Shown piece by piece: positions 2,535-47,612 of a stretch of DNA of 64,000 nucleotides. The notes under the pieces are model-generated. The model had not been told where the DNA came from and ran no database searches. It saw nothing but the letters and a program-made list of their open reading frames with translations. Origin of the DNA: Candidatus Parcubacteria bacterium (GTDB lineage: Bacteria; Patescibacteriota; Minisyncoccia; Phycocordibacterales; JAACPR01); assembly GCA_009995365.1 (NCBI GenBank), contig JAACPR010000003.1, positions 405 through 64,404 of the forward strand, read 5' to 3'. How positions within the stretch are numbered: position 1 is the first letter of the stretch; each line of letters begins with the position of its first letter. Position numbers and translations under genes: made by a program.

Positions 2535-2948
2535 ATGCCAACAATAAATCAATTGGTTAAAAAAGGAAGAAATAAGACAGCCCGCAAATCAAAAGCGGTG
2601 GCTTTGACTCGTGGTTTCAATTCTGAAAAGAACAAACCAACTTTTTATAATTCTCCATTCAAAAGAGGTGTTTGTACAAAAGTTACAACAAAGACTCCTA
2701 GAAAACCTAACTCAGCTGTTCGTAAAGTTGCTCGTGTTCGTTTAACTAACGGAATGGAGGTTACTGCTTATATTCCAGGTATGGGACATAACCTACAAGA
2801 GCACTCAGTTGTTCTTCTTCGTGGAGGTCGTGTAAAGGACGTTAACATTCGTTATACAATTGTTCGTGGTGTTCTAGATGCCGAAGGTGTACAAAACAGA
2901 AATAATTCTCGTTCACGATATGGTGCTAAAAAACCCAAAGGGGAATAA
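2535..2948 (+). CDS. rpsL: 30S ribosomal protein S12
   Basis: [12 protein letters not shown]...[25 protein letters not shown] is a canonical S12 sequence. Confidence 0.95.
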
Positions 2949-2974
2949 TATAGAGAGATAAATAATTTTAAATT

Positions 2975-3445
2975 ATGCGAAGACAAGTAAAAAATAGAAA
3001 TATTGCAAAAGCAGATGATAAATACAATTCAGTAAAAATTGGTAAGTTTATTAATCATTTAATGATGGACGGTAAAAAATCTGTTGCTATAAGAGTTGTT
3101 TATGACGCTTTTGAAATCATTAAGGAAAAAGAAAAAGTAGAAAACCCACTAGAAGTTTTTGAAACAGCTTTAAAAAATATCTCTCCAATGGTCGAAGTTC
3201 GTTCTCGTAGAGTTGGTGGTGCTAACTACCAAGTTCCTCGTGAAGTTCGTCCAGAGCGTCGTCTATATCTAGGTATGACATGGTTGTTAAATGCAGCTAG
3301 AAGCGGGAAAGGTAAACCAATGGCTAATAGATTAGCTGATGAGATTATCCTTGCATCTAAAGGTGAAGGTGAATCAGTCAAGAAGAAAGAAAATATGCAT
3401 AAAATGGCTGAGGCCAACAAAGCTTTCGCTCACTTCGCTTGGTAG
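2975..3445 (+). CDS. rpsG: 30S ribosomal protein S7
   Basis: The segment VEVRSRRVGGANYQVPREVRPERR is a conserved S7 block. Confidence 0.95.
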   Translation: MRRQVKNRNIAKADDKYNSVKIGKFINHLMMDGKKSVAIRVVYDAFEIIKEKEKVENPLEVFETALKNISPMVEVRSRRVGGANYQVPREVRPERRLYLGMTWLLNAARSGKGKPMANRLADEIILASKGEGESVKKKENMHKMAEANKAFAHFAW

Positions 3446-4201: not shown

Positions 4202-6346
4202 ATGAATCGTGATTATCCACTAAATAAAGTTAGAAACTTCGGTATTATTGCCCACATTGATGCCGGAAAAACTACAACATCAGAAAGAATTCTTTTCTAT
4301 ACCGGTGTATCTCACAAAATCGGGGAAGTTCATGAAGGTGCTGCAGTTATGGACTGGATGGAACAAGAAAGAGAAAGAGGTATTACTATTACTTCTGCTG
4401 CTACAACAGCTTTTTGGGTTCCAACATACGAAGATGCAACTGATGAATCTAAAAAAAATCGTTTTAATATTATTGACACACCAGGACACGTTGACTTTAC
4501 AGCTGAAGTAGAACGTTCTCTAAAAGTTCTAGACGGTGGTGTTGTTGTGTTTGACGGTGTTGCTGGAGTTGAACCACAATCAGAAACAGTTTGGAGACAA
4601 GCTGATAAATATGGTGTTCCAAGAATTTGTTTTATTAACAAACTTGATAGAACTGGAGCTAGCTTTGAGAAATCATTCCAATCTATTATCAAAAGATTAA
4701 GTCCTAATGCTGTTCGTGCCCAACTACCATGGGGACATGAAGCAGATCTAAAAGGAGTTATTGATCTTCTTACAATGAAAGCTTACACATTTGAAGGTGA
4801 AATGGGTAATAAAGTAATTGAACAAGAAATTCCAGAAGAATTAAAAGCGGATGCTGAAAAATATCGTAGTGAATTTATTGAAAAAATCGTTGAACAAGAC
4901 GATGAATTGATGGAAAAATTCTTAGGTGGAGAAGAAATTGCTTTGGATAAACTAAAAGCAGCACTTAGAAAAGGTGTTATTGCTAATCAAATCATTCCAG
5001 TATTTACAGGTTCAGCACTTAAAAACGTCGGAGTTCAAAAAGTTCTAGATGCCGTTGTAGATTACCTACCAGCTCCAGACGATGTTCCCCCAATTAAAGG
5101 AGAAAATCCAGATACAGCAGAACCAATGGAAAGAAAATCATCAGATGATGAGCCATTTGCTGCTCTTGCTTTCAAATTACAGACTGACCCATTCGTAGGA
5201 CAGCTTACTTTCTTCCGTGTTTATTCGGGAACAGTATCAGCAGGTTCTTATGTATATAATTCATCAACAGGAAAAAAAGAAAGACTTGGTCGTATCGTTA
5301 GAATGCATGCAAACGATAGAGAAGAAGTGGATACAGTTTATGCTGGAGAAATCGCAGCTGCTGTAGGTCTAAAAGAAACTACAACTTCTGACACGCTTTG
5401 TGATGAAAATAATCCAATTATTCTAGAAAAAATTGAGTTCGCAGAACCAGTTATTTCTATGAGGATTGAGCCAAAGACAAAGGCTGATCAAGAAAAAATG
5501 GGTATGGCTCTTAGTCGTCTTTCATCAGAAGACCCAACTTTCCGTGTTCAAACTGATCAAGAAACTTTGGAAACTGTTATTTCAGGTATGGGTGAGCTTC
5601 ACCTTGATATTATTGTTGATCGTATGAAAAGAGAATTTAATGTCGAAGCAAATGTTGGTAAACCACAAGTTGCTTATCGTGAAACTATTCAAGGAAATGG
5701 TGAAGCAGAACATAAATACATCAAACAATCCGGAGGTAAAGGTCAATACGGTCATGTTAAGATTCGTGTTAAACCAATGGATATGACTGTTAACGCAGAA
5801 GAGCTTCCAAAGAATATTAAAAGAGATGGAGGATTTGAATTTGTTAACTCAATCAAAGGTGGTGTTATTCCAAACGAATTCATTCCAGCCTGTGAAAAAG
5901 GATTTAAAGAAGCTATGGAGCGCGGTATCGTTGCAGGATACAAGATGACAGATGTTTCAGTAGAGCTATACGATGGTTCTTACCATGATGTTGACTCTTC
6001 AGAAATTGCTTTCAAACTTGCGTCTTCAATGGCTTTCCAAGAAGCTGCTAGATCAGCTAGACCAGTTCTACTAGAACCTATTATGAAAGTAGAAGTTACT
6101 TCACCAGAGGAATTTACTGGAGATATTACAGGTAACCTTTCATCAAAGCGTGGACAAGTAGAAGGTATGGATGATCAAGGAAACGGAATCACTGTTATTC
6201 ACTCAAAAGTTCCTTTGTCAGAATTGTTCGGTTACACAACAACTCTTCGTTCTATGACACAAGGTCGTGCTTCAGCAACTATCGAACCGGATCATTATGA
6301 TGTTGTTCCAGCTAATGTTGCCGAAGAAATTAAAGCAGGGAAGTAA
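4202..6346 (+). CDS. fusA: Elongation factor G
   Basis: [26 protein letters not shown] and the full 714-aa EF-G architecture. Confidence 0.95.
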
Positions 6347-8219: not shown

Positions 8220-9269
8220 TTGCGGGGGGGGGGTAGACTGTTTATAGTGAGAAAAATTTTTAGACATGAATACAATGATATCATTTCTGTTGAGAATTTG
8301 TTATTAGCTTGGCAAGAATTTATTAGAGGGAAGAAAAATAGGAAAGATGTTCAAGAATTTCAATTATATCTGATGAAAAATATTTTTGAATTACATTTTG
8401 ATTTAAAAAATAAAACTTACCAACATTCGAAATATCAAAAATTCAATATTAGTGATCCAAAGCCAAGAGAAATTAATAAAGCATCTGTTAGAGATAGATT
8501 ACTTCATCATGCTATTTATCAAAAACTTTATCCATTTTTTGATAAGAAGTTTATTGGTGATTCTTATTCTTGTAGGAATGGAAAAGGAACGCATAAAGCC
8601 ATTAATCAATTTGAGAAATTTTATAGAAAAGTTTCTAAAAATCACACTAAAACTTGTTGGGTTTTAAAATGTGATATTAAAAAATTCTTTGCCAGTATTA
8701 ACCATCAGATTTTAAAGGATGTTTTAATTAAATATATTTCTGATAAAGATATTTTAAATTTATTGTCAGTGATAATTGATAGTTTTGAAACTAATAAACA
8801 TTTAATAGTTGGCAAAAATTCAAAAACTGGTCTTCCACTCGGAAATTTAACCTCTCAATTATTGGTTAATATTTACATGAATGAATTTGATCATTTTGTT
8901 AAAGGAAATTTGAAAATAAAATATTATGTTCGTTATGCTGATGATTTTGTTTTTCTATCTACAGACAAAAAATTTTTAGAAAAACTTATTCCTAAAATTG
9001 GATATTTTTTAGAAACTAATTTAAAATTAACTCTACACCCTAACAAAGTTTCAATCAAAAATTATTCATCAGGTGTCGATTTTCTTGGCTGGGTTCATTT
9101 TGATGATCATAAAATACTAAGAACTAATACTAAAAATCGGATGTTTAAGAAATTACAATTTCAGTTAGAAAAATTTGGAGAAATTAACGAAGATTCGAGA
9201 CAGTCTTATTTGGGATTATTGTCGCATGGTAATACTTATAAAATTCAACAAGAAATAAGAGGAAAATAA
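8220..9269 (+). CDS. DGR reverse transcriptase. The start is uncertain: TTG at 8220 or GTG at 8247.
   Basis: RT motifs are DIKKFFASINHQIL, the YVRYADDFVF (YADD) motif and the LGNLTSQ motif (the DGR-specific I/LGxxxSQ that replaces QGxxxSP of group II RTs). About 349 aa with no maturase or endonuclease domains. Confidence 0.85.
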   Translation: MRGGGRLFIVRKIFRHEYNDIISVENLLLAWQEFIRGKKNRKDVQEFQLYLMKNIFELHFDLKNKTYQHSKYQKFNISDPKPREINKASVRDRLLHHAIYQKLYPFFDKKFIGDSYSCRNGKGTHKAINQFEKFYRKVSKNHTKTCWVLKCDIKKFFASINHQILKDVLIKYISDKDILNLLSVIIDSFETNKHLIVGKNSKTGLPLGNLTSQLLVNIYMNEFDHFVKGNLKIKYYVRYADDFVFLSTDKKFLEKLIPKIGYFLETNLKLTLHPNKVSIKNYSSGVDFLGWVHFDDHKILRTNTKNRMFKKLQFQLEKFGEINEDSRQSYLGLLSHGNTYKIQQEIRGK

Positions 9270-9327
9270 AATCTTTCTAAAATAATAGTTTGACTAAAGT
9301 AATACAATGTATATACTTTGTATTATG

Positions 9328-9597
9328 AAAACAACAACCAGTATAAAACTAGATAAAGAGGTCAAAGAACAGGCTTCTGATTTAGCCAAGGAACTTGGAC
9401 TTTCTCTGAGTGGTGTTATTAATGCTACTCTAAAACAGTTTGTTAATGACAGGAGTGTTTTTCTGACTACTACCCCTCAATTCAATGAAAAAGCCGCCAA
9501 ACGAATGCTAAAATTAATGGATGATGCTAAAAAAGGTAAAAATCTATGTGGTCCTTTTAAAACAGATGAAGAATTATTTAAAGCATTAGAAATTTAA
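9328..9597 (+). CDS. dinJ: DinJ/RelB-family antitoxin. The ORF track starts at 9307.
   Basis: SIKLDKEVKEQASDLAKELGLSLSGVINATLKQF matches the DinJ RHH N-terminus. Confidence 0.7.
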   Translation, partial: KTTTSIKLDKEVKEQASDLAKELGLSLSGVINATLKQFVNDRSVFLTTTPQFNEKAAKRMLKLMDDAKKGKNLCGPFKTDEELFKALEI

Positions 9598-9604
9598 TTT
9601 TATT

Positions 9605-9859
9605 ATGCGGATAACTTTTCATAGGAAATTTAAGAAAAATATTAAAAAACAACCTAGAAAAGTTCAAATTAAATTTAAAAAAAGATATAAATTATTTAAA
9701 AAAGATCAATTTCATCATTCACTCAACAATCACGCTCTAAAAGGAAAATATTATGGAATTAGAAGTATTAATATAACTGGTGATATTAGGGCTCATTACC
9801 TAGAGGATGATGGAGGTGTTATTTTTCTGGATATCGGTGATCATTCTGACCTATATTAG
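9605..9859 (+). CDS. yafQ: YafQ/RelE-family toxin (mRNA interferase)
   Basis: HHSLNNHALKGKYYGIRSINITGDIRAHYL...DIGDHSDLY matches the YafQ C-terminal signature. It is adjacent to and just downstream of the antitoxin gene. Confidence 0.7.
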   Translation: MRITFHRKFKKNIKKQPRKVQIKFKKRYKLFKKDQFHHSLNNHALKGKYYGIRSINITGDIRAHYLEDDGGVIFLDIGDHSDLY

Positions 9860-9872
9860 TTTTGTCTTGATT

Positions 9873-9992
9873 AAAACCCTAACCCAAATACTATCGAGTT
9901 CCTCCGCAGACCTTCGTTGTCAATGACTTTATGTCTTGACATAAGAAGTGTCGAGGACGGGAACGAGAGAGTATTTGGGTTAGGGTTTTTTT
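9873..9992 (+). ncRNA. Terminator-embedded structured RNA element, copy 1. A conserved roughly 80-nt core sits inside a long outer stem followed by a T-run.
   Basis: The outer stem is aaaaccctaacccaaatac / gtatttgggttagggttttttt. The core ctatcgagttcctccgcagacc...gtcaatg.ctttA..cttgac.aag.agtgtcgaggacgggaacgagagag is shared with the copy at 23059-23175. Confidence 0.5.
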
Positions 9993-9993
9993 A

Positions 9994-10021
9994 TTGACAC
10001 AAAACTATCTTCTGTTAATAT
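9994..10021 (+). promoter_or_regulatory. Putative sigma70 promoter for tuf (TTGACA, 16-nt spacer, TAATAT)
   Basis: Sits immediately after the structured terminator and about 180 nt upstream of tuf. Confidence 0.35.
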
Positions 10022-28967: not shown

Positions 28968-31766
28968 ATGGAAAAAATTGGACTTAATAATCAAATAGAG
29001 AAAAAATTTCAAGACCCTCAAGAGGAGATTGAGTATCTGCGTAAACAAATTCAAGAGAGAGAGCGACAGATTGAAAGCGCAGGTAGTCAGCCTGATAGAG
29101 AAAAAGTAATCGAACATGCTATTTCTGATTATAAACAAAATAAACCAGAAGAGGTTTTAGAAAAAGGTCACATTGTTCCAGAGAAAAATCGTGAAGAAAT
29201 TGTTTTACAACTTCAGCCAGAAGAGCATGATGATAAAATTTCAGAGTTATATGGAATGTTGGAGGAAAAGGGGGTTCTTAACACTATTGATATAGTTGAA
29301 AAGATGAACGATCCACACATTAGTGATGATTTTCATCGTTTCTTGGTTCAATATATTCGTGAAGGCTATACTGTCAAAGGTTTGAAAGATAAATCTCCAC
29401 TAGCAAAATCACTGAAGAGAATTTTATTTGAAATTACTTTGCCTGATCGTGGGGGCGAAGATCGTGAACAAAATCTGCAGCAGTTAATTTCTATGATGGA
29501 GCAATTTTATTATGGAATGCTTCATATTAGTGAAGAAGATAAGGACGATTATTTAACGCTGGAAATTGCTAATTCTGTGGGAAGTCGTCAATTTGTTTTT
29601 TACATTTCAGTTTCACTAAAAAGACGAGGTTTATTTGAAAAGCAATTTTTGTCATTTTTTCCGAACGCTAGAATTCTAGAGCAAAAAGATGATTTCAATG
29701 TCTTTAATCCAAAAGGTGTATCGGTCGGTTCTTATGCTATTTTGGAAAAAACACCTGCCAAGCCACTTAGAAGTTATGATGAATTTCAAAATGATCCATT
29801 GAAAGTTTTGTTAAATGTCTTTTCAAAATTAGATACAACAAAAGAAGGGGCTGGAATTCAGTTGGTATTTAAACCATCTGGAAGTTTTTATCAAAAAAAT
29901 TATTCAAAAGTCTTGTCTAGATTAGAGAAAGGGGAAAAACCCGGAGACGAGCTTTATATGAGGAATACAACTGCGGACAAGTTCATGAACACAGTCTCTG
30001 GGCTTTTTAGTGGCGGTTTTAGTTCAAAAAAAGATGATAAGGAAAAAGAGGAAGCACCTAAAATTGATTCTTCTCTGGTTGAATTAATTAAAAAGAAAAT
30101 AGATAAACCTATTATTTCAACAAATATTAGGATAGTTTCTTCTGGGGAGACACTAGAGAGAGCAAAATCTATTTTGTCTGATATTGAGTCGGCGTTTAAC
30201 CAATTCGACGACCCTACCTCAAATCAAATCAATTTTGCAAATCTAAAGGATCGCCATATGAAAAAACTTTTCAAGGATTTTACCTTTAGAAGTTATACTC
30301 CTTCAATCGAATTGCCTCTAAATTTGGCTGAGGTGGCAACTATTATGCACTTCCCACAGGAAAAGACTTCTATTTCATCACAATTGAAATCTAATAATTT
30401 TGCTACCGCTGCTGCACCTGTTAACTTGGCAGAAGAGGGTATTTTGTTAGGTATTAATGAACACCAAGGTACTGAAACAGATGTTTATTTATCAAAGGAA
30501 GATCGTCTCCGCCACTTGTATACGATTGGGCAAACTGGAACCGGTAAGACTAACTTTTTGAAAAGTTTAATTATTCAAGATATTCAAAACGGAGAAGGGG
30601 TTTGTATGATTGATCCGCACGGGAATGATATTCAGGATGTGTTAGCTAACATTCCGCCAGAGCGATACGATGATGTTATCTATTTTGATCCAGCTAATAC
30701 TGAAAACCCGATGGCTTTGAATATGTTGGAATATGACAAGAATTTTCCTGAGCAGAAAATTTTCGTTGTTAATGAATTGTTCGGTATTTTTATGAAATTG
30801 TATGGTTCAAATCCTGAGTCAATGGGGCCAATGTTCGAGCAATATTTTAGGAATGCCGCTGGCTTGGTAGTAGAAGATCCTGAATCAGGAAATACTTTGC
30901 TAGATATTTCCCGTGTCTTGGCTGACGAAAAATATCGTAAATTAAAATTATCTCGTTGTAATAACCCTATCATTAAACAATTTTGGGAAGAGGTTGCTGG
31001 TAAAGCAGGCGGGGAAGCATCACTTGCAAATATTGTTCCTTATATTACTTCTAAATTTGATGTTTTCTTGGCTAATGACATTATGCGTCCGATTGTTGCT
31101 CAGGAGAAGTCGTCATTTAATTTCCGTGATGTGATGGATAACAAAAAAATATTGCTGGTTAACCTTTCAAAGGGACGTCTTGGTGATATCAACTCTAATC
31201 TGATCGGTCTTATTATTGTAGGAAAGATCTTGATGGCGGCACTTTCTCGTGCTGATTCATACGGAAAAGATTTTCCGCCGTTCTATTTATATATTGATGA
31301 ATTCCAAAACATTACAACTGATTCAATTTCTACAATCTTGTCAGAGGCTAGAAAATATAAACTTTCTTTAAATGTCGCTCATCAGTTTATCGCACAATTA
31401 GATGAAAAGATTAGCGATGCGGTTTTTGGTAACGTTGGGTCCATGACTGTATTTCGTGTCGGTTCTGAAGATGCTCAATTTTTTGAAAAGCAATACGAGC
31501 CTACTTTTGGTGCTAGCGATATAATGAACATTGATAATTTTAATTGTTATGCAAAGATTTTGGCTAATGGTGTTCCAGTTAAGCCATTTAGTTTTAAAGC
31601 CTTAAAATCACCAGATGGAAATCCTGAAATAGTTGAACAACTTAAGCAGTTATCTTATCAGAAATATGGAAAACCTCGTTCTGAAATCGAAGCTGAAATA
31701 GCAAAAAAATATAAAAAAGAAGAACCAAAAGAGAACGAAGAGAACCCTTTTAAAAGTTTAAGATAA
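28968..31766 (+). CDS. TraG/VirD4 (type IV coupling protein)-like P-loop ATPase with a roughly 450-aa N-terminal domain of unknown function
   Basis: Walker A TIGQTGTGKTNFL, Walker B LYIDEFQN, and a TraG-D_C-like block EARKYKLSLNVAHQFIAQL. Confidence 0.55.
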   Translation: MEKIGLNNQIEKKFQDPQEEIEYLRKQIQERERQIESAGSQPDREKVIEHAISDYKQNKPEEVLEKGHIVPEKNREEIVLQLQPEEHDDKISELYGMLEEKGVLNTIDIVEKMNDPHISDDFHRFLVQYIREGYTVKGLKDKSPLAKSLKRILFEITLPDRGGEDREQNLQQLISMMEQFYYGMLHISEEDKDDYLTLEIANSVGSRQFVFYISVSLKRRGLFEKQFLSFFPNARILEQKDDFNVFNPKGVSVGSYAILEKTPAKPLRSYDEFQNDPLKVLLNVFSKLDTTKEGAGIQLVFKPSGSFYQKNYSKVLSRLEKGEKPGDELYMRNTTADKFMNTVSGLFSGGFSSKKDDKEKEEAPKIDSSLVELIKKKIDKPIISTNIRIVSSGETLERAKSILSDIESAFNQFDDPTSNQINFANLKDRHMKKLFKDFTFRSYTPSIELPLNLAEVATIMHFPQEKTSISSQLKSNNFATAAAPVNLAEEGILLGINEHQGTETDVYLSKEDRLRHLYTIGQTGTGKTNFLKSLIIQDIQNGEGVCMIDPHGNDIQDVLANIPPERYDDVIYFDPANTENPMALNMLEYDKNFPEQKIFVVNELFGIFMKLYGSNPESMGPMFEQYFRNAAGLVVEDPESGNTLLDISRVLADEKYRKLKLSRCNNPIIKQFWEEVAGKAGGEASLANIVPYITSKFDVFLANDIMRPIVAQEKSSFNFRDVMDNKKILLVNLSKGRLGDINSNLIGLIIVGKILMAALSRADSYGKDFPPFYLYIDEFQNITTDSISTILSEARKYKLSLNVAHQFIAQLDEKISDAVFGNVGSMTVFRVGSEDAQFFEKQYEPTFGASDIMNIDNFNCYAKILANGVPVKPFSFKALKSPDGNPEIVEQLKQLSYQKYGKPRSEIEAEIAKKYKKEEPKENEENPFKSLR

Positions 31767-31778
31767 TAAAAATAATAA

Positions 31779-32375
31779 ATGAAAAAAGAACAAACACTGG
31801 TTGTAATAAAACCTGACGGAATACAAAGAACTTTAATAGGAGAAATAATTAAAAGATTCGAAAGAACTGGTTTGAAATTAGTAGGCATTAAAATGCTTAT
31901 TCCAGACAGTGATCACATTAAAAAACATTACACTATTGATCCTGATTGGATTGAAAAGGTGGGGCAAAAGTCAATCGACTCTCTTGCTGAGAAAGGTGAA
32001 GAATTAAAAACAGATGACCCAATTGAGGCGGGCAATAAAATATTAGATGTTTTGGTTAAATATATGTCATCTGGTCCGGTTGTTGCTATGGTGTGGCAAG
32101 GGGTAAATTCTGTTGGCGTCGTTAGAAAAATTGTCGGATCAACTGAACCGCTTTCTTCTGATATTGGAACAATACGCGGAGACTTTGTTTTAGATTCTTA
32201 TAAAATTGCTGATACTGACGGTAGGGCTGTTCGTAATTTGATTCATGCCTCAGGTTCGGTAGATGAAGCCGAAAAAGAAATTGCACTTTGGTTTAATCAA
32301 AATGAGATAGTAAATTACAGGCTAATTCAGGAGCAAATCATCTACGATGTTAATTTAGATGGCATTTTAGAGTAG
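31779..32375 (+). CDS. ndk: Nucleoside diphosphate kinase with a C-terminal extension
   Basis: VVIKPDGIQRTLIGEIIKRFERTGLKLVGIK and the active-site NLIHASGSVDEAEKEIALWF. Confidence 0.85.
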   Translation: MKKEQTLVVIKPDGIQRTLIGEIIKRFERTGLKLVGIKMLIPDSDHIKKHYTIDPDWIEKVGQKSIDSLAEKGEELKTDDPIEAGNKILDVLVKYMSSGPVVAMVWQGVNSVGVVRKIVGSTEPLSSDIGTIRGDFVLDSYKIADTDGRAVRNLIHASGSVDEAEKEIALWFNQNEIVNYRLIQEQIIYDVNLDGILE

Positions 32376-32411
32376 CTATATTTCGATAATAAAATATGTT
32401 AATATGTAATA

Positions 32412-32565
32412 GGGTCATAGAATGAATACTAGATTAAGTGGATCCTAAGGGAGTTCAAATCGTTTTCGAACTGTGGTTTGAGAACTGCGAGCACCCACTT
32501 GCTAATAGCTAGGATCTCATTCATGGCCCCAGTTAAAACACCGAGCATTCGCTCGGTGTTTTTGC
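32412..32565 (+). ncRNA. Candidate small structured RNA (about 150 nt) with its own -10 element and intrinsic terminator. It could be a cis-regulatory leader or riboswitch of the downstream membrane protein.
   Basis: A rod-like fold. 5' gggtcat..atgaat pairs with 3' attcatggccc, and gatcctaag pairs with ctaggatc. The apical segment is agttcaaatcgttttcgaact. Terminator caccgagcattcgctcggtg followed by T4 at 32538-32563. Confidence 0.4.
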
Positions 32566-32583
32566 TATAATTATTTAATAAAT

Positions 32584-32985
32584 ATGTTTTACAAAAAGCC
32601 TTTTTTCAAAGAATCTCTCTATCTCTCTATTTTGATTGCTATTCTTCATTATATATCGCTCGAATTGTATCTTTACTGGACAATTAGTTGGTTTGATATT
32701 CTGATGCATTTCTTGGGAGGTTTTCTGATTGCAATTTTTGTCATCCTCGTTCTTTATTCTTATAGTGATTTTGAAAGCTTGAAAAAGCACAAGATATTTT
32801 TGTTTAGTCTGATTGTGGGTATGACATTGGTGGTCGGCCTAGGTTGGGAATTGTGGGAAATTTTTGTTGGCTTTACTGATGCTATTAATGATCTAGGTGA
32901 TACAATATTAGATATAGTTATGGATGTTATCGGAGCATTTTCAGCAATTTATTATTCTAAAAATAAATTATGGGAGAAAAAATAA
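32584..32985 (+). CDS. Hypothetical 4-TM membrane protein
   Basis: Hydrophobic profile. It lies downstream of the structured RNA and its stop overlaps the next gene. Confidence 0.4.
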   Translation: MFYKKPFFKESLYLSILIAILHYISLELYLYWTISWFDILMHFLGGFLIAIFVILVLYSYSDFESLKKHKIFLFSLIVGMTLVVGLGWELWEIFVGFTDAINDLGDTILDIVMDVIGAFSAIYYSKNKLWEKK

Positions 32986-34370
32986 AATCAAAAAGCGGGG
33001 AAGTTAAATTACATTTCTACGGCGGTGCAGAGTCGGTTACTGGTTCTAATTTTGTCATCGAATATGATGATAAAAAAATAATGGTAGACTGCGGACTTAC
33101 CCAAGGCGCTTATTACAAGAATCCAAAAGATGATCCAAATAGACAACCTTTTGATTATGATCCTGCCGGTATAGATTATTTGTTGGTGACTCATGCACAC
33201 GCAGACCATATTGGACGCATCCCTAAATTGGTAAAAGATGGATTTAGAGGGAAAATTTATTCAACTCCATCGACGCGCGATTTAACAGAAATCATGTTTG
33301 ATGACGCCTTGTCGGTGGTTTCAAATTACGCTAGGGAGCACAATGTAGAGCCAACTTATCAGAAAGAGGATGTCGAGCTGGCAATGTCTCTATGGCAAAC
33401 TATTCCATACCATCAGGATTTTGAATTAACTGATAGATTTAGTATTTATTTCAAGGATGCTGGTCATATCTTGGGTTCAGCAATGATTTACTTGAAAGAC
33501 AAAAAAACTGACAAAAATATTGTCTTTACCGGAGATCTTGGAAACACTCCGACTCCTTTGATTCGTGATACTGAAAAAGTTGATGATGCTAACTTTTTAA
33601 TAATGGAAAGTGTCTACGGCGATAGAAATCACGAGGGTAGAGCAGAAAGGAAAGAAAAACTCAAACAAACATTAAATAGGATAATCGATAGAAAGGGGAC
33701 TTTGTTAATTCCGGTTTTCTCGCTAGAGAAGACTCAAGTTCTATTGCATGAAATGAATGATTTGATTGAAGGTGGCGAAGTTCCGTCTGTTCCAGTTTTC
33801 TTCGATTCTCCACTTGGGATTCGTTTGACCGAAGTCTATGCAAAACAGTTTCAAAATTTTAATGAAAAAGTTCAAGAGCGCATAAAAAGAGGTGATGATA
33901 TTTTTGACTTTCCTAAACTTAAAAAAACTTACGATAGAAAAGAATCGCAATCTATTCACAGAACCAAGGGGCCAAAGATAATCGTTGCTAGTTCTGGAAT
34001 GAGTATCGGCGGTAGGATTATGGATCATGAAAAGCGTTATCTAGAGGATCCTAAAAATGCAATTTTGTTCATTGGCTATCAGGTTCCTGGGACACTTGGG
34101 CGTGCGATTAAAGAGGGAAATAAGAGTGTAAAAATTGATAATAAAAAAGTAGCAATCAAGGCTGAGATTGGGGTTGTAAATGGTTATTCTTCACATAAAG
34201 ATTCTGATAATTTGTTGCAATTTGCATTGGACAATGAAGGAATTGTCGAAAAAGTTTTTGTGGTATTAGGGGAATCAAAGTCAGCCATGTATTTAACACA
34301 GAAAATTAGAGATAACTCTACAATTAACGCAGTTCACCCAAGTGATGGGGAAACAGTGGTTTTGTATTAA
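32970..34370 (+). CDS. Beta-CASP family MBL-fold ribonuclease (RNase J/CPSF-like)
   Basis: VTHAHADHIG, ...DAGHILGS and a C-terminal GYSSHKD (beta-CASP motif C). Confidence 0.75.
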   Translation: MGEKIKSKSGEVKLHFYGGAESVTGSNFVIEYDDKKIMVDCGLTQGAYYKNPKDDPNRQPFDYDPAGIDYLLVTHAHADHIGRIPKLVKDGFRGKIYSTPSTRDLTEIMFDDALSVVSNYAREHNVEPTYQKEDVELAMSLWQTIPYHQDFELTDRFSIYFKDAGHILGSAMIYLKDKKTDKNIVFTGDLGNTPTPLIRDTEKVDDANFLIMESVYGDRNHEGRAERKEKLKQTLNRIIDRKGTLLIPVFSLEKTQVLLHEMNDLIEGGEVPSVPVFFDSPLGIRLTEVYAKQFQNFNEKVQERIKRGDDIFDFPKLKKTYDRKESQSIHRTKGPKIIVASSGMSIGGRIMDHEKRYLEDPKNAILFIGYQVPGTLGRAIKEGNKSVKIDNKKVAIKAEIGVVNGYSSHKDSDNLLQFALDNEGIVEKVFVVLGESKSAMYLTQKIRDNSTINAVHPSDGETVVLY

Positions 34371-43413: not shown

Positions 43414-43417
43414 GATG

Positions 43418-43792
43418 TGGAAACGGTGGGAATCGAACCCACGTCCAAACAAGGTAAACATATGACTCTACAAAGCTTAGTTTATCTTTTGATCTCGATT
43501 ACTGTTCTGAAAGATAAACAGAACAAACAATAATCCAGCTCGTGATTTCGGATAAGAACGCGAGCAGCGAACTTAACCTATCCTGATTTGCGTCGCCTTA
43601 GTCATCCAATCAGGATTCAGATGGTAAGACGTCGCTAGCTTATTAAGATAAAGCGAATGCAAAGTCTCCAACCTTGTAAGGTGAAGCAATTGAATTGTTT
43701 TTTGCATTTGGTTTTTCTGACAGTTTAAAGATTTATCAGAGATCTGCTTTGCACATATGTTTACGATTTGTTCGTCTAAACCGATCGTCCCC
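43418..43792 (-). ncRNA. ssrA: tmRNA (SsrA)
   Basis: 3' tRNA-like domain GTGGGTTCGATTCCCAC plus acceptor CGTTTCC-A. The 5' end GGGGACGAUCGGUUUAGACGAAC forms the acceptor with a G3:U70 pair and an A73 discriminator (Ala identity). The candidate tag ORF ends ...GDFAFALS with UAAUAA. It lies directly downstream of smpB. Confidence 0.7.
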
Positions 43793-47538: not shown

Positions 47539-47612
47539 TGCACCCAGCAGGACTCGAACCTGCGACCGCGGAGATATAAGCTCCGTGCTACTACCAACTG
47601 AGCTATGGGTGC
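47539..47612 (-). tRNA. tRNA with anticodon UAU (reads AUA, presumptive tRNA-Ile)
   Basis: Cloverleaf: acceptor GCACCCA/TGGGTGC, T-arm GCAGG-TTCGAGT-CCTGC, anticodon stem CGGAG/CTCCG with loop CUUAUAU. No encoded CCA. Confidence 0.75.

Follow-up and report, generated by a model that had tools for sequence, protein, structure and literature searches.

What kind of RNA is encoded in the spacer behind ndk in this Candidatus Parcubacteria bacterium, and does it belong to the membrane-protein gene that follows it or is it a gene of its own? The locus was analysed within a stretch of 64,000 nucleotides (the window). An earlier note on this DNA had described a rod-like structure framed by a -10-like hexamer and a strong terminator, and had left two readings side by side, a trans-acting small RNA resembling the 6S rod and a terminator-type riboswitch controlling the membrane protein. 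The element is preceded by ndk (31779-32375, Pfam NDK) and followed by a gene for a DUF2238/PF09997 membrane protein of 133 amino acids (32584-32985, with its ATG at 32584). Its sequence is the same as that recorded as 'hypothetical protein GW764_01270 [Candidatus Parcubacteria bacterium]', and its gene is followed by that of a beta-CASP metallo-beta-lactamase nuclease (32970-34370). With a G+C fraction of 0.46 compared to 0.26-0.27 in the flanks, the element forms a G+C peak within an A+T-rich spacer. The locus lies beside a ribosomal-protein/secY/map cluster.

The folded element and its signals

The minimum free energy of the element is -64.2 kcal/mol, compared to -37.3 +/- 3.4 kcal/mol for 200 dinucleotide shuffles (z = -7.9), and none of the 200 shuffles folds as well. 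The opposite strand of the element folds less well, with z = -4.9. The rod of about 115 nt that the earlier note had proposed is present as a rod of 119 nt on the plus strand. Its outer pairing of the 5' and 3' ends is confirmed in two helices, P1a and P1b, and the inner pairing given there as gatcctaag with ctaggatc is present as helix P1c (Table 1). The closing stem has 13 bp in the window and leads into a one-sided 5' bulge of 14-15 nt, and P1c closes the inner part of the central bubble. Beyond P1c, a three-way junction carries a long apical stem-loop and a short hairpin, an arrangement that is found across the family described below. Inward from its GGG/CCC foot, the apical arm has an A-A mismatch and a helix of 4 bp; an internal loop then leads to a helix of 10 bp, which is capped by a UGUG loop (32472-32475).

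The signals on both sides of the rod were also seen correctly. The -10-like TAATAT is preceded by TG at 32397-32398, which makes it an extended -10 element; it ends 6 nt ahead of the first G of the RNA, and no good -35 element accompanies it. The strong terminator ahead of the membrane-protein gene is a hairpin of 8-12 bp (12 bp in the computed fold), and including it the RNA measures about 152 nt. A simple terminator scan of the window did not list this terminator, likely because the A-U pairs that extend its stem use up the U run. We also considered a small open reading frame within the RNA and rejected it, as the 8-codon AUG frame of the window copy is not kept in the aligned relatives.

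Table 1. Positions of the RNA gene, its parts and the adjoining promoter, numbered from the first letter of the window
Feature	Coordinates	Strand	Description and basis
RNA body	32412..32530	+	119 nt, proposed compact 6S RNA; fold z-score, R1/R2 scores, covariation
Closing stem, 5' strand	32412..32425	+	P1a 32412-32418, P1b 32420-32425, A32419 bulged; partner 32517-32529
P1a	32412-32418 with 32523-32529	+	GGGUCAU with AUGGCCC; pairing
P1b	32420-32425 with 32517-32522	+	GAAUGA with UCAUUC; pairing
One-sided 5' central bulge	32426..32440	+	AUACUAGAUUAAGUG; proposed template region for the product RNA
P1c, 5' strand	32441..32447	+	GAUCCUA; partner UAGGAUC 32510-32516; inner part of the bubble closed by P1c
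Apical stem-loop	32449..32496	+	GGG 32449-32451 with CCC 32494-32496; near-invariant pairs, covarying helices
3' side of the central bubble	32497..32509	+	ACUU, then small hairpin GCUAAUAGC (32501-32509)
Promoter of the RNA gene	32397..32405	+	TGTTAATAT; extended -10, TAATAT 32400-32405; sequence and family counts
Intrinsic terminator of the RNA gene	32535..32563	+	stem 32539-32546/32551-32558 plus A-U extension, loop AUUC, five U
Separate promoter of the DUF2238 and beta-CASP genes	32563..32571	+	TGCTATAAT; context, outside the RNA; ends 12 nt before ATG 32584

Conservation of the fold across Paceibacteria

Eighty species-representative genome loci were fetched via the DUF2238 protein and searched with two covariance models, R1, built from five sequences, and R2, built from 67 of the R1 matches. 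R1 finds the RNA in 68 of the 80 loci, on the same strand as DUF2238. R2 adds eight loci, one of them weak, and relocates the RNA in L085, where the R1 match at 2905-3042 is false and R2 places the RNA at 2064-2191. This brings the family to 76 of the 80 Paceibacteria/Parcubacteria species representatives, with record names that include Kaiserbacteria, Campbellbacteria, Taylorbacteria, Yonathbacteria and Paceibacterota. A metagenome scan with a context-free family pattern gave 83 stretches, 80 of which were fetched as loci and 73 of these 80 confirmed by R2. The window itself holds a single copy (137.7 bits with R1, 104.2 bits with R2). In Taylorbacteria we observe a weak tandem second copy of the RNA; for 6S RNA, tandem genes have been described from the Bacillus cereus group (PMC7726162).

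Alignment of related intergenic regions, which the earlier note had called for, bears out that the element is conserved well above its flanks and carries compensatory changes. Contigs encoding DUF2238 relatives keep it far better than the surrounding spacer, and in one locus (L009) the entire outer stem is rewritten with compensating changes. Among 70 distinct sequences, 36 of 37 modelled pairs show changes on both sides. Standard pairs occupy 90% of the cells of the 37 modelled pairs, compared to 37-47% when the partners are slid by one to three columns, and none of 500 shuffles reaches the observed covariation values. Fitting these alignments to the model gives the structure an advantage, but the slid controls and the mutual-information ranking argue that the signal is real: over the whole alignment, 21 of the top 23 mutual-information pairs are structure pairs, 19 from the first helix set and two from P1c.

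The signal extends to each helix of the rod. In P1a and P1b all 12 modelled pairs (7 + 5) are changed on both sides, and 96% of the cells in P1a and 85% in P1b are paired. P1c shows double changes at all eight of its pairs with 82% of cells paired, and its mutual-information pairs are 54-248, 58-242, 59-241, 55-246 and 53-249. The small 3' hairpin covaries as well, with 88% of cells paired. The fold is kept by compensatory changes across a whole bacterial class. Many positions switch between U-G and C-G or U-A, and since these frequent U-G pairs are possible on the plus strand only, the plus strand is the transcribed one.

The dimensions of the RNA vary within narrow limits. The body measures mostly 114-138 nt. 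The closing stem has 13-17 bp in most members and about 25 bp in the lineage in which the RNA follows a Clp gene, where it is longer by about 11 bp. Most members have a 5' bulge of 13-17 nt, and in 63 of 67 the strand facing it has no unpaired nucleotide. P1c ranges from 5 to 9 bp across the family; it is a helix of 7-8 bp with four G-C pairs in the window copy. In most members the apical arm comprises 46-49 nt with two small internal loops and a CUUG-type loop; this loop of CUUG/UGUG type is replaced by long insertions in some members.

Only the foot of the apical arm is near-invariant in sequence, with A-GGG-A-G on its 5' side and C-A-CCC-ACCU on its 3' side. The GGG/CCC pairs are G-C in 67 and 69 of the 70 sequences, and ACCU or ACUU straight after CCC is near-invariant in the family. 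The bulge differs between lineages except for a CUA that lies 14-23 nt before the apical GGG in 58 of 66 members, within the consensus U-CUAGAU(U/C)AAAU(A). A role of this conserved CUA as a stop codon or an anticodon-like signal was considered and dropped, having found no support.

Relation to the downstream genes

The promoter and terminator recur throughout the family. In 56 of 68 members the modelled 5' end is preceded, at a distance of 5-9 nt (mode 7), by a hexamer with at least five of six matches to TATAAT, and 33 of 68 also have at least four of six matches to TTGACA at a spacing of 16-19 nt. A hairpin followed by a U run is found in 64 of 68 members and usually starts 7-10 nt past the RNA body, with hairpin sequences that are unrelated between members. 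Judged from these sequence signals, 32412-32530 (+) plus the terminator up to 32563 makes up a small-RNA gene independent of its neighbours, with a sigma-70-type promoter, a predicted start at the G run and an intrinsic terminator that all belong to it.

The same arrangement could be taken for a cis-acting leader that controls both DUF2238 and beta-CASP, with a ligand bound at the three-way junction setting the terminator, as in an attenuator or a terminator-type riboswitch. Riboswitches are commonly laid out in this way, with conserved bases in a three-way junction and a terminator behind it, and here a membrane-protein gene comes next. The RNA mostly lies on the same strand as DUF2238 and directly upstream of it, and among the 73 confirmed metagenome matches there are 35 in which DUF2238 is the first recognised gene after the RNA. 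This reading has to contend with a conserved extended -10 element located between the terminator and the start codon: TGnTATAAT or GATATACT is seen 6-12 nt before the ATG of DUF2238 in many related loci (by eye, in about 20 loci). Because this promoter sits there, the DUF2238 mRNA starts past the terminator and is almost leaderless, and the terminator therefore cannot be an expression platform for DUF2238.

Structure and gene order point in the same direction. The structured domain and the terminator of the family do not overlap. They are separated by a linker of 3-10 nt between outer stem and terminator, with no common bases, and inspection by eye for an anti-terminator, a check proposed in the earlier note, revealed no alternative pairing and no aptamer segment complementary to the 5' arm of the terminator. 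The association with the gene is broken in several lineages. In three loci (L015, L023, L031) genes on the minus strand separate the RNA from DUF2238, and in eight metagenome loci the beta-CASP gene follows the RNA directly, without DUF2238. In one lineage (L149, L161, L152, L106, L116, L105, L178) the RNA follows a Clp/Hsp100 ATPase gene, with a CorA gene next on the other strand. On the upstream side, L006 retains the RNA though ndk is missing, which speaks against a leader and also rejects an association with ndk. With no mutually exclusive pairing seen by eye and no shared transcription unit with a consistent gene, the riboswitch half of the earlier proposal is largely refuted, and we regard a cis-acting leader as very improbable.

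Likeness to 6S RNA and possible mode of action

As described in PMC8414754, canonical 6S RNA comprises a closing stem, a large 5' central bulge that holds the start of the product RNA, a small-looped apical stem and a hairpin opposite the bulge, and the 6S-like candidates of Weissella have a TATAAT promoter and a rho-independent terminator. The family shares these features with 6S RNA (RF00013): by its signals it is an independent, strongly promoted small RNA, its ends pair into a closing stem, and it has a large single-stranded 5' bulge, a looped apical stem and a small 3' hairpin, with the covarying P1c closing the inner part of the bubble in addition. In E. coli 6S RNA, according to PMC8876501, recognition depends mainly on two elements: the 3' part of the bubble holds one that is '-10-like', and the apical arm holds one that is '-35-like'. 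In our family, the invariant ACCU and the small hairpin are located in the 3' part of the bubble.

The curated models do not assign the element directly. The earlier note could not match it to SRP or riboswitch families, and Rfam agrees, returning nothing at gathering score for the element in seven Parcubacteria/Paceibacteria loci including the window. At this score the window and five related loci gave only tmRNA and one tRNA, neither of them close to the element. For 6S RNA in particular, the window has no match at gathering score, and the 351 nt from 32300 to 32650 have none at E <= 10; the matches to the element at E <= 10 are only junk driven by the terminator.

A relative from the Clp-context lineage provides the link. 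The Rfam 6S model RF00013 aligns end to end (model 1-187) with positions 5045-5188 of L149 at 26.2 bits, a score below the gathering score of 46.4 bits. Two small searches, each run on the full set of 4227 families, gave this match E = 0.0011 and 0.00066. L149 is a clear member of the family (55 bits with R2, E = 6e-12). In this alignment, the near-invariant AGGGAG and CACCCAC(C/U)U of the family coincide with GGG and CCCACCU, which are written in upper case in the 6S consensus; that consensus reads ...CuGAgCCgAaaauuuuuauaaua-GGG-a-gcccuc ... gagggc-a-CCC-ACCUggaA.... The segment GGGag...gggcaCCC of the Rfam consensus occupies the same position as the apical foot of the family, and in both an A-A mismatch plus a helix stands between GGG and CCC, so that GGG-A-helix ... 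helix-A-CCC-ACCU flanks the apical side of the bubble. The family bulge CUAGAUCAAAU is aligned to CuGAgCCgAaaau of the Rfam consensus and is related to it, with differences that are mostly transitions. The canonical form is found in some members, as CUGAGC in L098 and L100 and as CUGAUC in L082. Of the bases conserved around the bubble of 6S RNA, GGG ... CCCACCU recurs near-invariantly in the family, and CuGAgCC of the 5' strand has its counterpart in the bulge consensus CUAGAUYAAAU.

We conclude that this RNA is probably the 6S RNA (SsrS) of the Parcubacteria/Paceibacteria bacterium studied here, in a divergent and compact form of about 120 nt to which the terminator hairpin is added. The 6S-like, trans-acting alternative of the earlier note gains support from the RNA's own promoter and terminator, its occurrence away from the membrane-protein gene, and the architecture and signature bases shared with 6S RNA.

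A rival reading is a lineage-specific structured RNA with a function unrelated to 6S RNA, whose likeness to 6S would be convergent or due to chance in one short motif. The bulge UCUAGAUUAAAU and the GGG/CCCACCU junction would then be docking sites for proteins or a seed for mRNAs. A single member reaches the Rfam 6S model, below gathering score. The window copy does not, nor does the short-stemmed L120 even at E <= 10, nor do four close relatives of L149 searched as whole loci, the last possibly an effect of filters. In the reverse direction, R2 run with filters off on the E. coli ssrS locus found nothing, which is weak evidence either way because E. coli 6S carries UUC-ACCU instead of CCC-ACCU. 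A bubble closed by P1c and a size of two-thirds of a normal 6S RNA would suit an unrelated RNA as well, and a base-pairing seed also looks like a conserved single-stranded loop. For a seed acting on a conserved target, however, one would not expect a bulge that varies between lineages save for CUA. Complements of the bulge are also not enriched in the window, with 14 found compared to 13.1 expected, and on this count base-pairing targets within the window were rejected. Several points speak against a chance likeness: the invariant bases match the best-conserved 6S positions one for one, including the A-A mismatch and the ACCU after CCC; the bulge departs from the 6S consensus mainly by transitions and takes the canonical CUGAGC form in some members; and the four-part architecture is that of the published 6S description (PMC8414754). 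We consider an unrelated function, including the docking or seed roles, unlikely.

A divergent form of another housekeeping RNA, such as SRP (4.5S) RNA, 5S rRNA or a tRNA-like or Y-RNA-like molecule, would fit an RNA that measures about 120 nt, pairs its two ends and has a strong promoter; for SRP RNA or 5S rRNA, the vicinity of the ribosomal-protein/secY/map genes would suit as well. The only motif shared with 5S rRNA is CCCACCU, which in E. coli belongs to helix III of that rRNA, at a different place in the molecule. The 351-nt search at E <= 10 gave no Rfam match to SRP, 5S, tRNA or Y RNA, and ARAGORN finds no tRNA at the element. Ffh is bound by helix 8 of SRP RNA through a GNRA tetraloop together with symmetric (AGG/AGCA) and asymmetric loops. 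By eye, the apical loop of our RNA is not of GNRA type, and neither an AGCA/AGG symmetric loop nor a GGAA motif is seen. The sequences of loop C and loop E of 5S rRNA are absent too. This makes another housekeeping RNA extremely improbable.

If the RNA is a 6S RNA, its action may follow the established mechanism (Wassarman and Storz 2000; Wassarman and Saecker 2006; Barrick 2005; as summarised in PMC9130861 and PMC8876501). By analogy, the open-centred rod would mimic an open promoter and would occupy the active-site cleft of the housekeeping RNA polymerase holoenzyme, damping transcription in starvation. When nutrients return, synthesis of a product RNA would unzip the closing stem, refold the RNA and free the polymerase. 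From the alignment to the 6S consensus, the predicted product RNA would start near U32439 and read 5'-ACUUAAUCUAGUAU-3'. In known 6S systems, as PMC8414754 reports, GG at positions 4/5 or 5/6 of the product RNA is conserved; at these positions the family does not encode it.

P1c leads to a further reading, namely a naturally minimised polymerase-binding RNA whose bubble is half closed by this helix and which works unlike textbook 6S RNA, or an RNA re-purposed for another partner in these host-dependent, ultra-small bacteria. Melting of P1c might, for example, be required before polymerase is bound, or the template might be nothing but the one-sided bulge of 14 nt, with release by a pre-formed 'collapse' helix. 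We hold this reading to be rather unlikely. If it is true, no 6S-type RNA would have been defined for the candidate phyla radiation before this one, which might also be the shortest that occurs naturally.

6S RNA is regarded as nearly universal in bacteria, yet the standard model did not pick it up in the seven loci scanned from these genomes. In the literature searched, we found no earlier description of the RNA from Parcubacteria, Patescibacteria or the candidate phyla radiation, and no paper linking 6S RNA with the candidate phyla radiation. 6S RNA as such is a well-known class; the novelty is a shortened, divergent form across Paceibacteria that is missed by the curated model. If the assignment to 6S RNA is true, an annotation gap is filled for a whole class of uncultured bacteria, given the recovery by R2 described above, and host-dependent bacteria with genomes of about 1 Mb or smaller would keep a global brake on RNA polymerase. 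The family would also represent a natural 'bubble plus two short arms' 6S RNA, so far only a laboratory truncation, and would test which parts are needed. The conserved extra helix in the bubble would call for a mechanistic explanation.

Compared to the usual 6S RNA, the family is shorter, with about 120 nt in contrast to 180-200 nt (about 185 nt). The covarying P1c, which is absent from the Rfam 6S consensus structure, parts the bulge from the junction and closes part of a bubble that is open in the consensus, and there is no unpaired base opposite the family bulge. Scores against the 6S model remain below gathering (L149), or the RNA is undetected (window copy, L120).

Another RNA of similar layout is Ms1 of Actinobacteria, a phylum in which canonical 6S RNA was not found according to PMC9130861. 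In that account, Ms1 binds RNA polymerase and has the form of a rod with an open bubble at its centre, and it was found via structure and synteny and not via sequence. Our family likewise is a rod-like RNA with a central bubble in a phylum without detected canonical 6S RNA. In contrast to the family, Ms1 measures about 300 nt, has extra terminal hairpins and binds core enzyme without sigma. It has no sequence relation to the family, and the window RNA gives no Rfam Ms1 match.

B. subtilis 6S-1 RNA resembles the family in two respects: when the RNA is free, its bubble already contains a small hairpin on the 3' side, and a terminator stands at its end. It differs in its length of about 190 nt and its long arms, which include the '-35-like' region. 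Its 'central bubble collapse helix' forms only after product-RNA synthesis, whereas P1c of the family is already formed in the ground state. As reported in PMC8876501, a truncated 6S-1 RNA consisting of the bubble and two short arms runs through the full cycle of binding, product-RNA synthesis and release in vitro, with an affinity lowered about ten-fold. Because this truncated RNA still completes the cycle, small size is no bar in principle, and the family has by nature essentially the layout of that truncated form.

Variation in the apical and closing stems

In nine members of the family of compact, 6S-like RNAs, an insertion of 30-50 nt takes the place of the upper apical hairpin (L074, L090, L063, L082, L069, L070, L043, L052 and L066). 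Several of these insertions contain GAUGAG...CUGACGA, which from its sequence looks like a kink-turn (C/D-box-like) module. One lineage differs in the stem that pairs the 5' and 3' ends, where the closing stem is about 11 bp longer (GACUUUACUGC / GGUAGUGAAGUC; L149 at 5036-5190, and L161, L106, L116, L105 and L178). Here the RNA has a TTGACA-N17-TATCAT promoter and lies in a different context, with a Clp/Hsp100 ATPase gene upstream and corA downstream on the opposite strand. This long-stemmed form is the only one to reach the Rfam 6S model.

In two Taylorbacteria loci, L019 and L020, ndk and the DUF2238 membrane-protein gene are separated by a gene-free gap of 960 nt (9039-10000). The second covariance model, R2, finds the family RNA there together with a weaker upstream copy. 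The latter carries AGGGAG...CACCCACUU plus a long insertion, features that would fit a tandem paralogue and may reflect one. Within the same gap, 9420-9720 appears structured; it matched no Rfam family.

Features in the window and in the Taylorbacteria gap
Feature	Location	Strand	Remarks
932-aa protein gene	window 28968-31766		weak DUF87/HerA, TraG-D_C and TrwB matches
ndk (nucleoside diphosphate kinase)	window 31779-32375		198 aa, unusually long
beta-CASP/metallo-beta-lactamase nuclease gene	window 32970-34370		two genes downstream of the family RNA
tmRNA	window 43415-43792	-	124 bits; tag peptide AKNNSIASPYKVGDFAFALS
tRNA-Ile, anticodon UAU	window 47539-47612	-	Rfam/ARAGORN
Family RNA	L019/L020 9808-9927		R2 E = 4e-12
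Weaker upstream copy	L019/L020 9140-9286		R2 E = 0.004

Terminator detection and other RNA genes

The clear terminator at window 32535-32563 was not reported by a simple terminator scan, probably because A-U pairs that lengthen the stem use up the U run. The scan undercounts terminators with flanking A runs. Apart from the tmRNA and tRNA-Ile, neither Rfam nor ARAGORN found RNA genes in the 64 kb.

Neighbouring genes and the downstream operon

In the window, the 932-aa protein gene directly precedes ndk; the counterpart of this protein in related contigs matches DUF8128. More distant relatives have another arrangement, with ndk placed after the ribosomal-protein spc operon, secY, (adk) and map.

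Reading window 32563-32586 and related loci by eye, we observe an extended -10 promoter (TGnTATAAT or GATATACT) ending only 6-12 nt 5' of the DUF2238 ATG, at the same position in, for example, L017, L024, L026, L034 and L050. No Shine-Dalgarno sequence is visible before this ATG in the same regions. The DUF2238/beta-CASP operon appears, as judged from these motifs, to be transcribed from a promoter next to the ATG, and with so short a distance and no visible Shine-Dalgarno sequence its mRNA would be leaderless or nearly so. By eye, and as an impression rather than a systematic count, many of the examined species share this arrangement.

The beta-CASP gene lies two genes 3' of the family RNA in most genomes and directly 3' in 8 metagenome loci. 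This proximity may be coincidence; RNase J1 of B. subtilis, a beta-CASP enzyme, is described as key to the processing and decay of 6S RNA in that species (PMC10578484).
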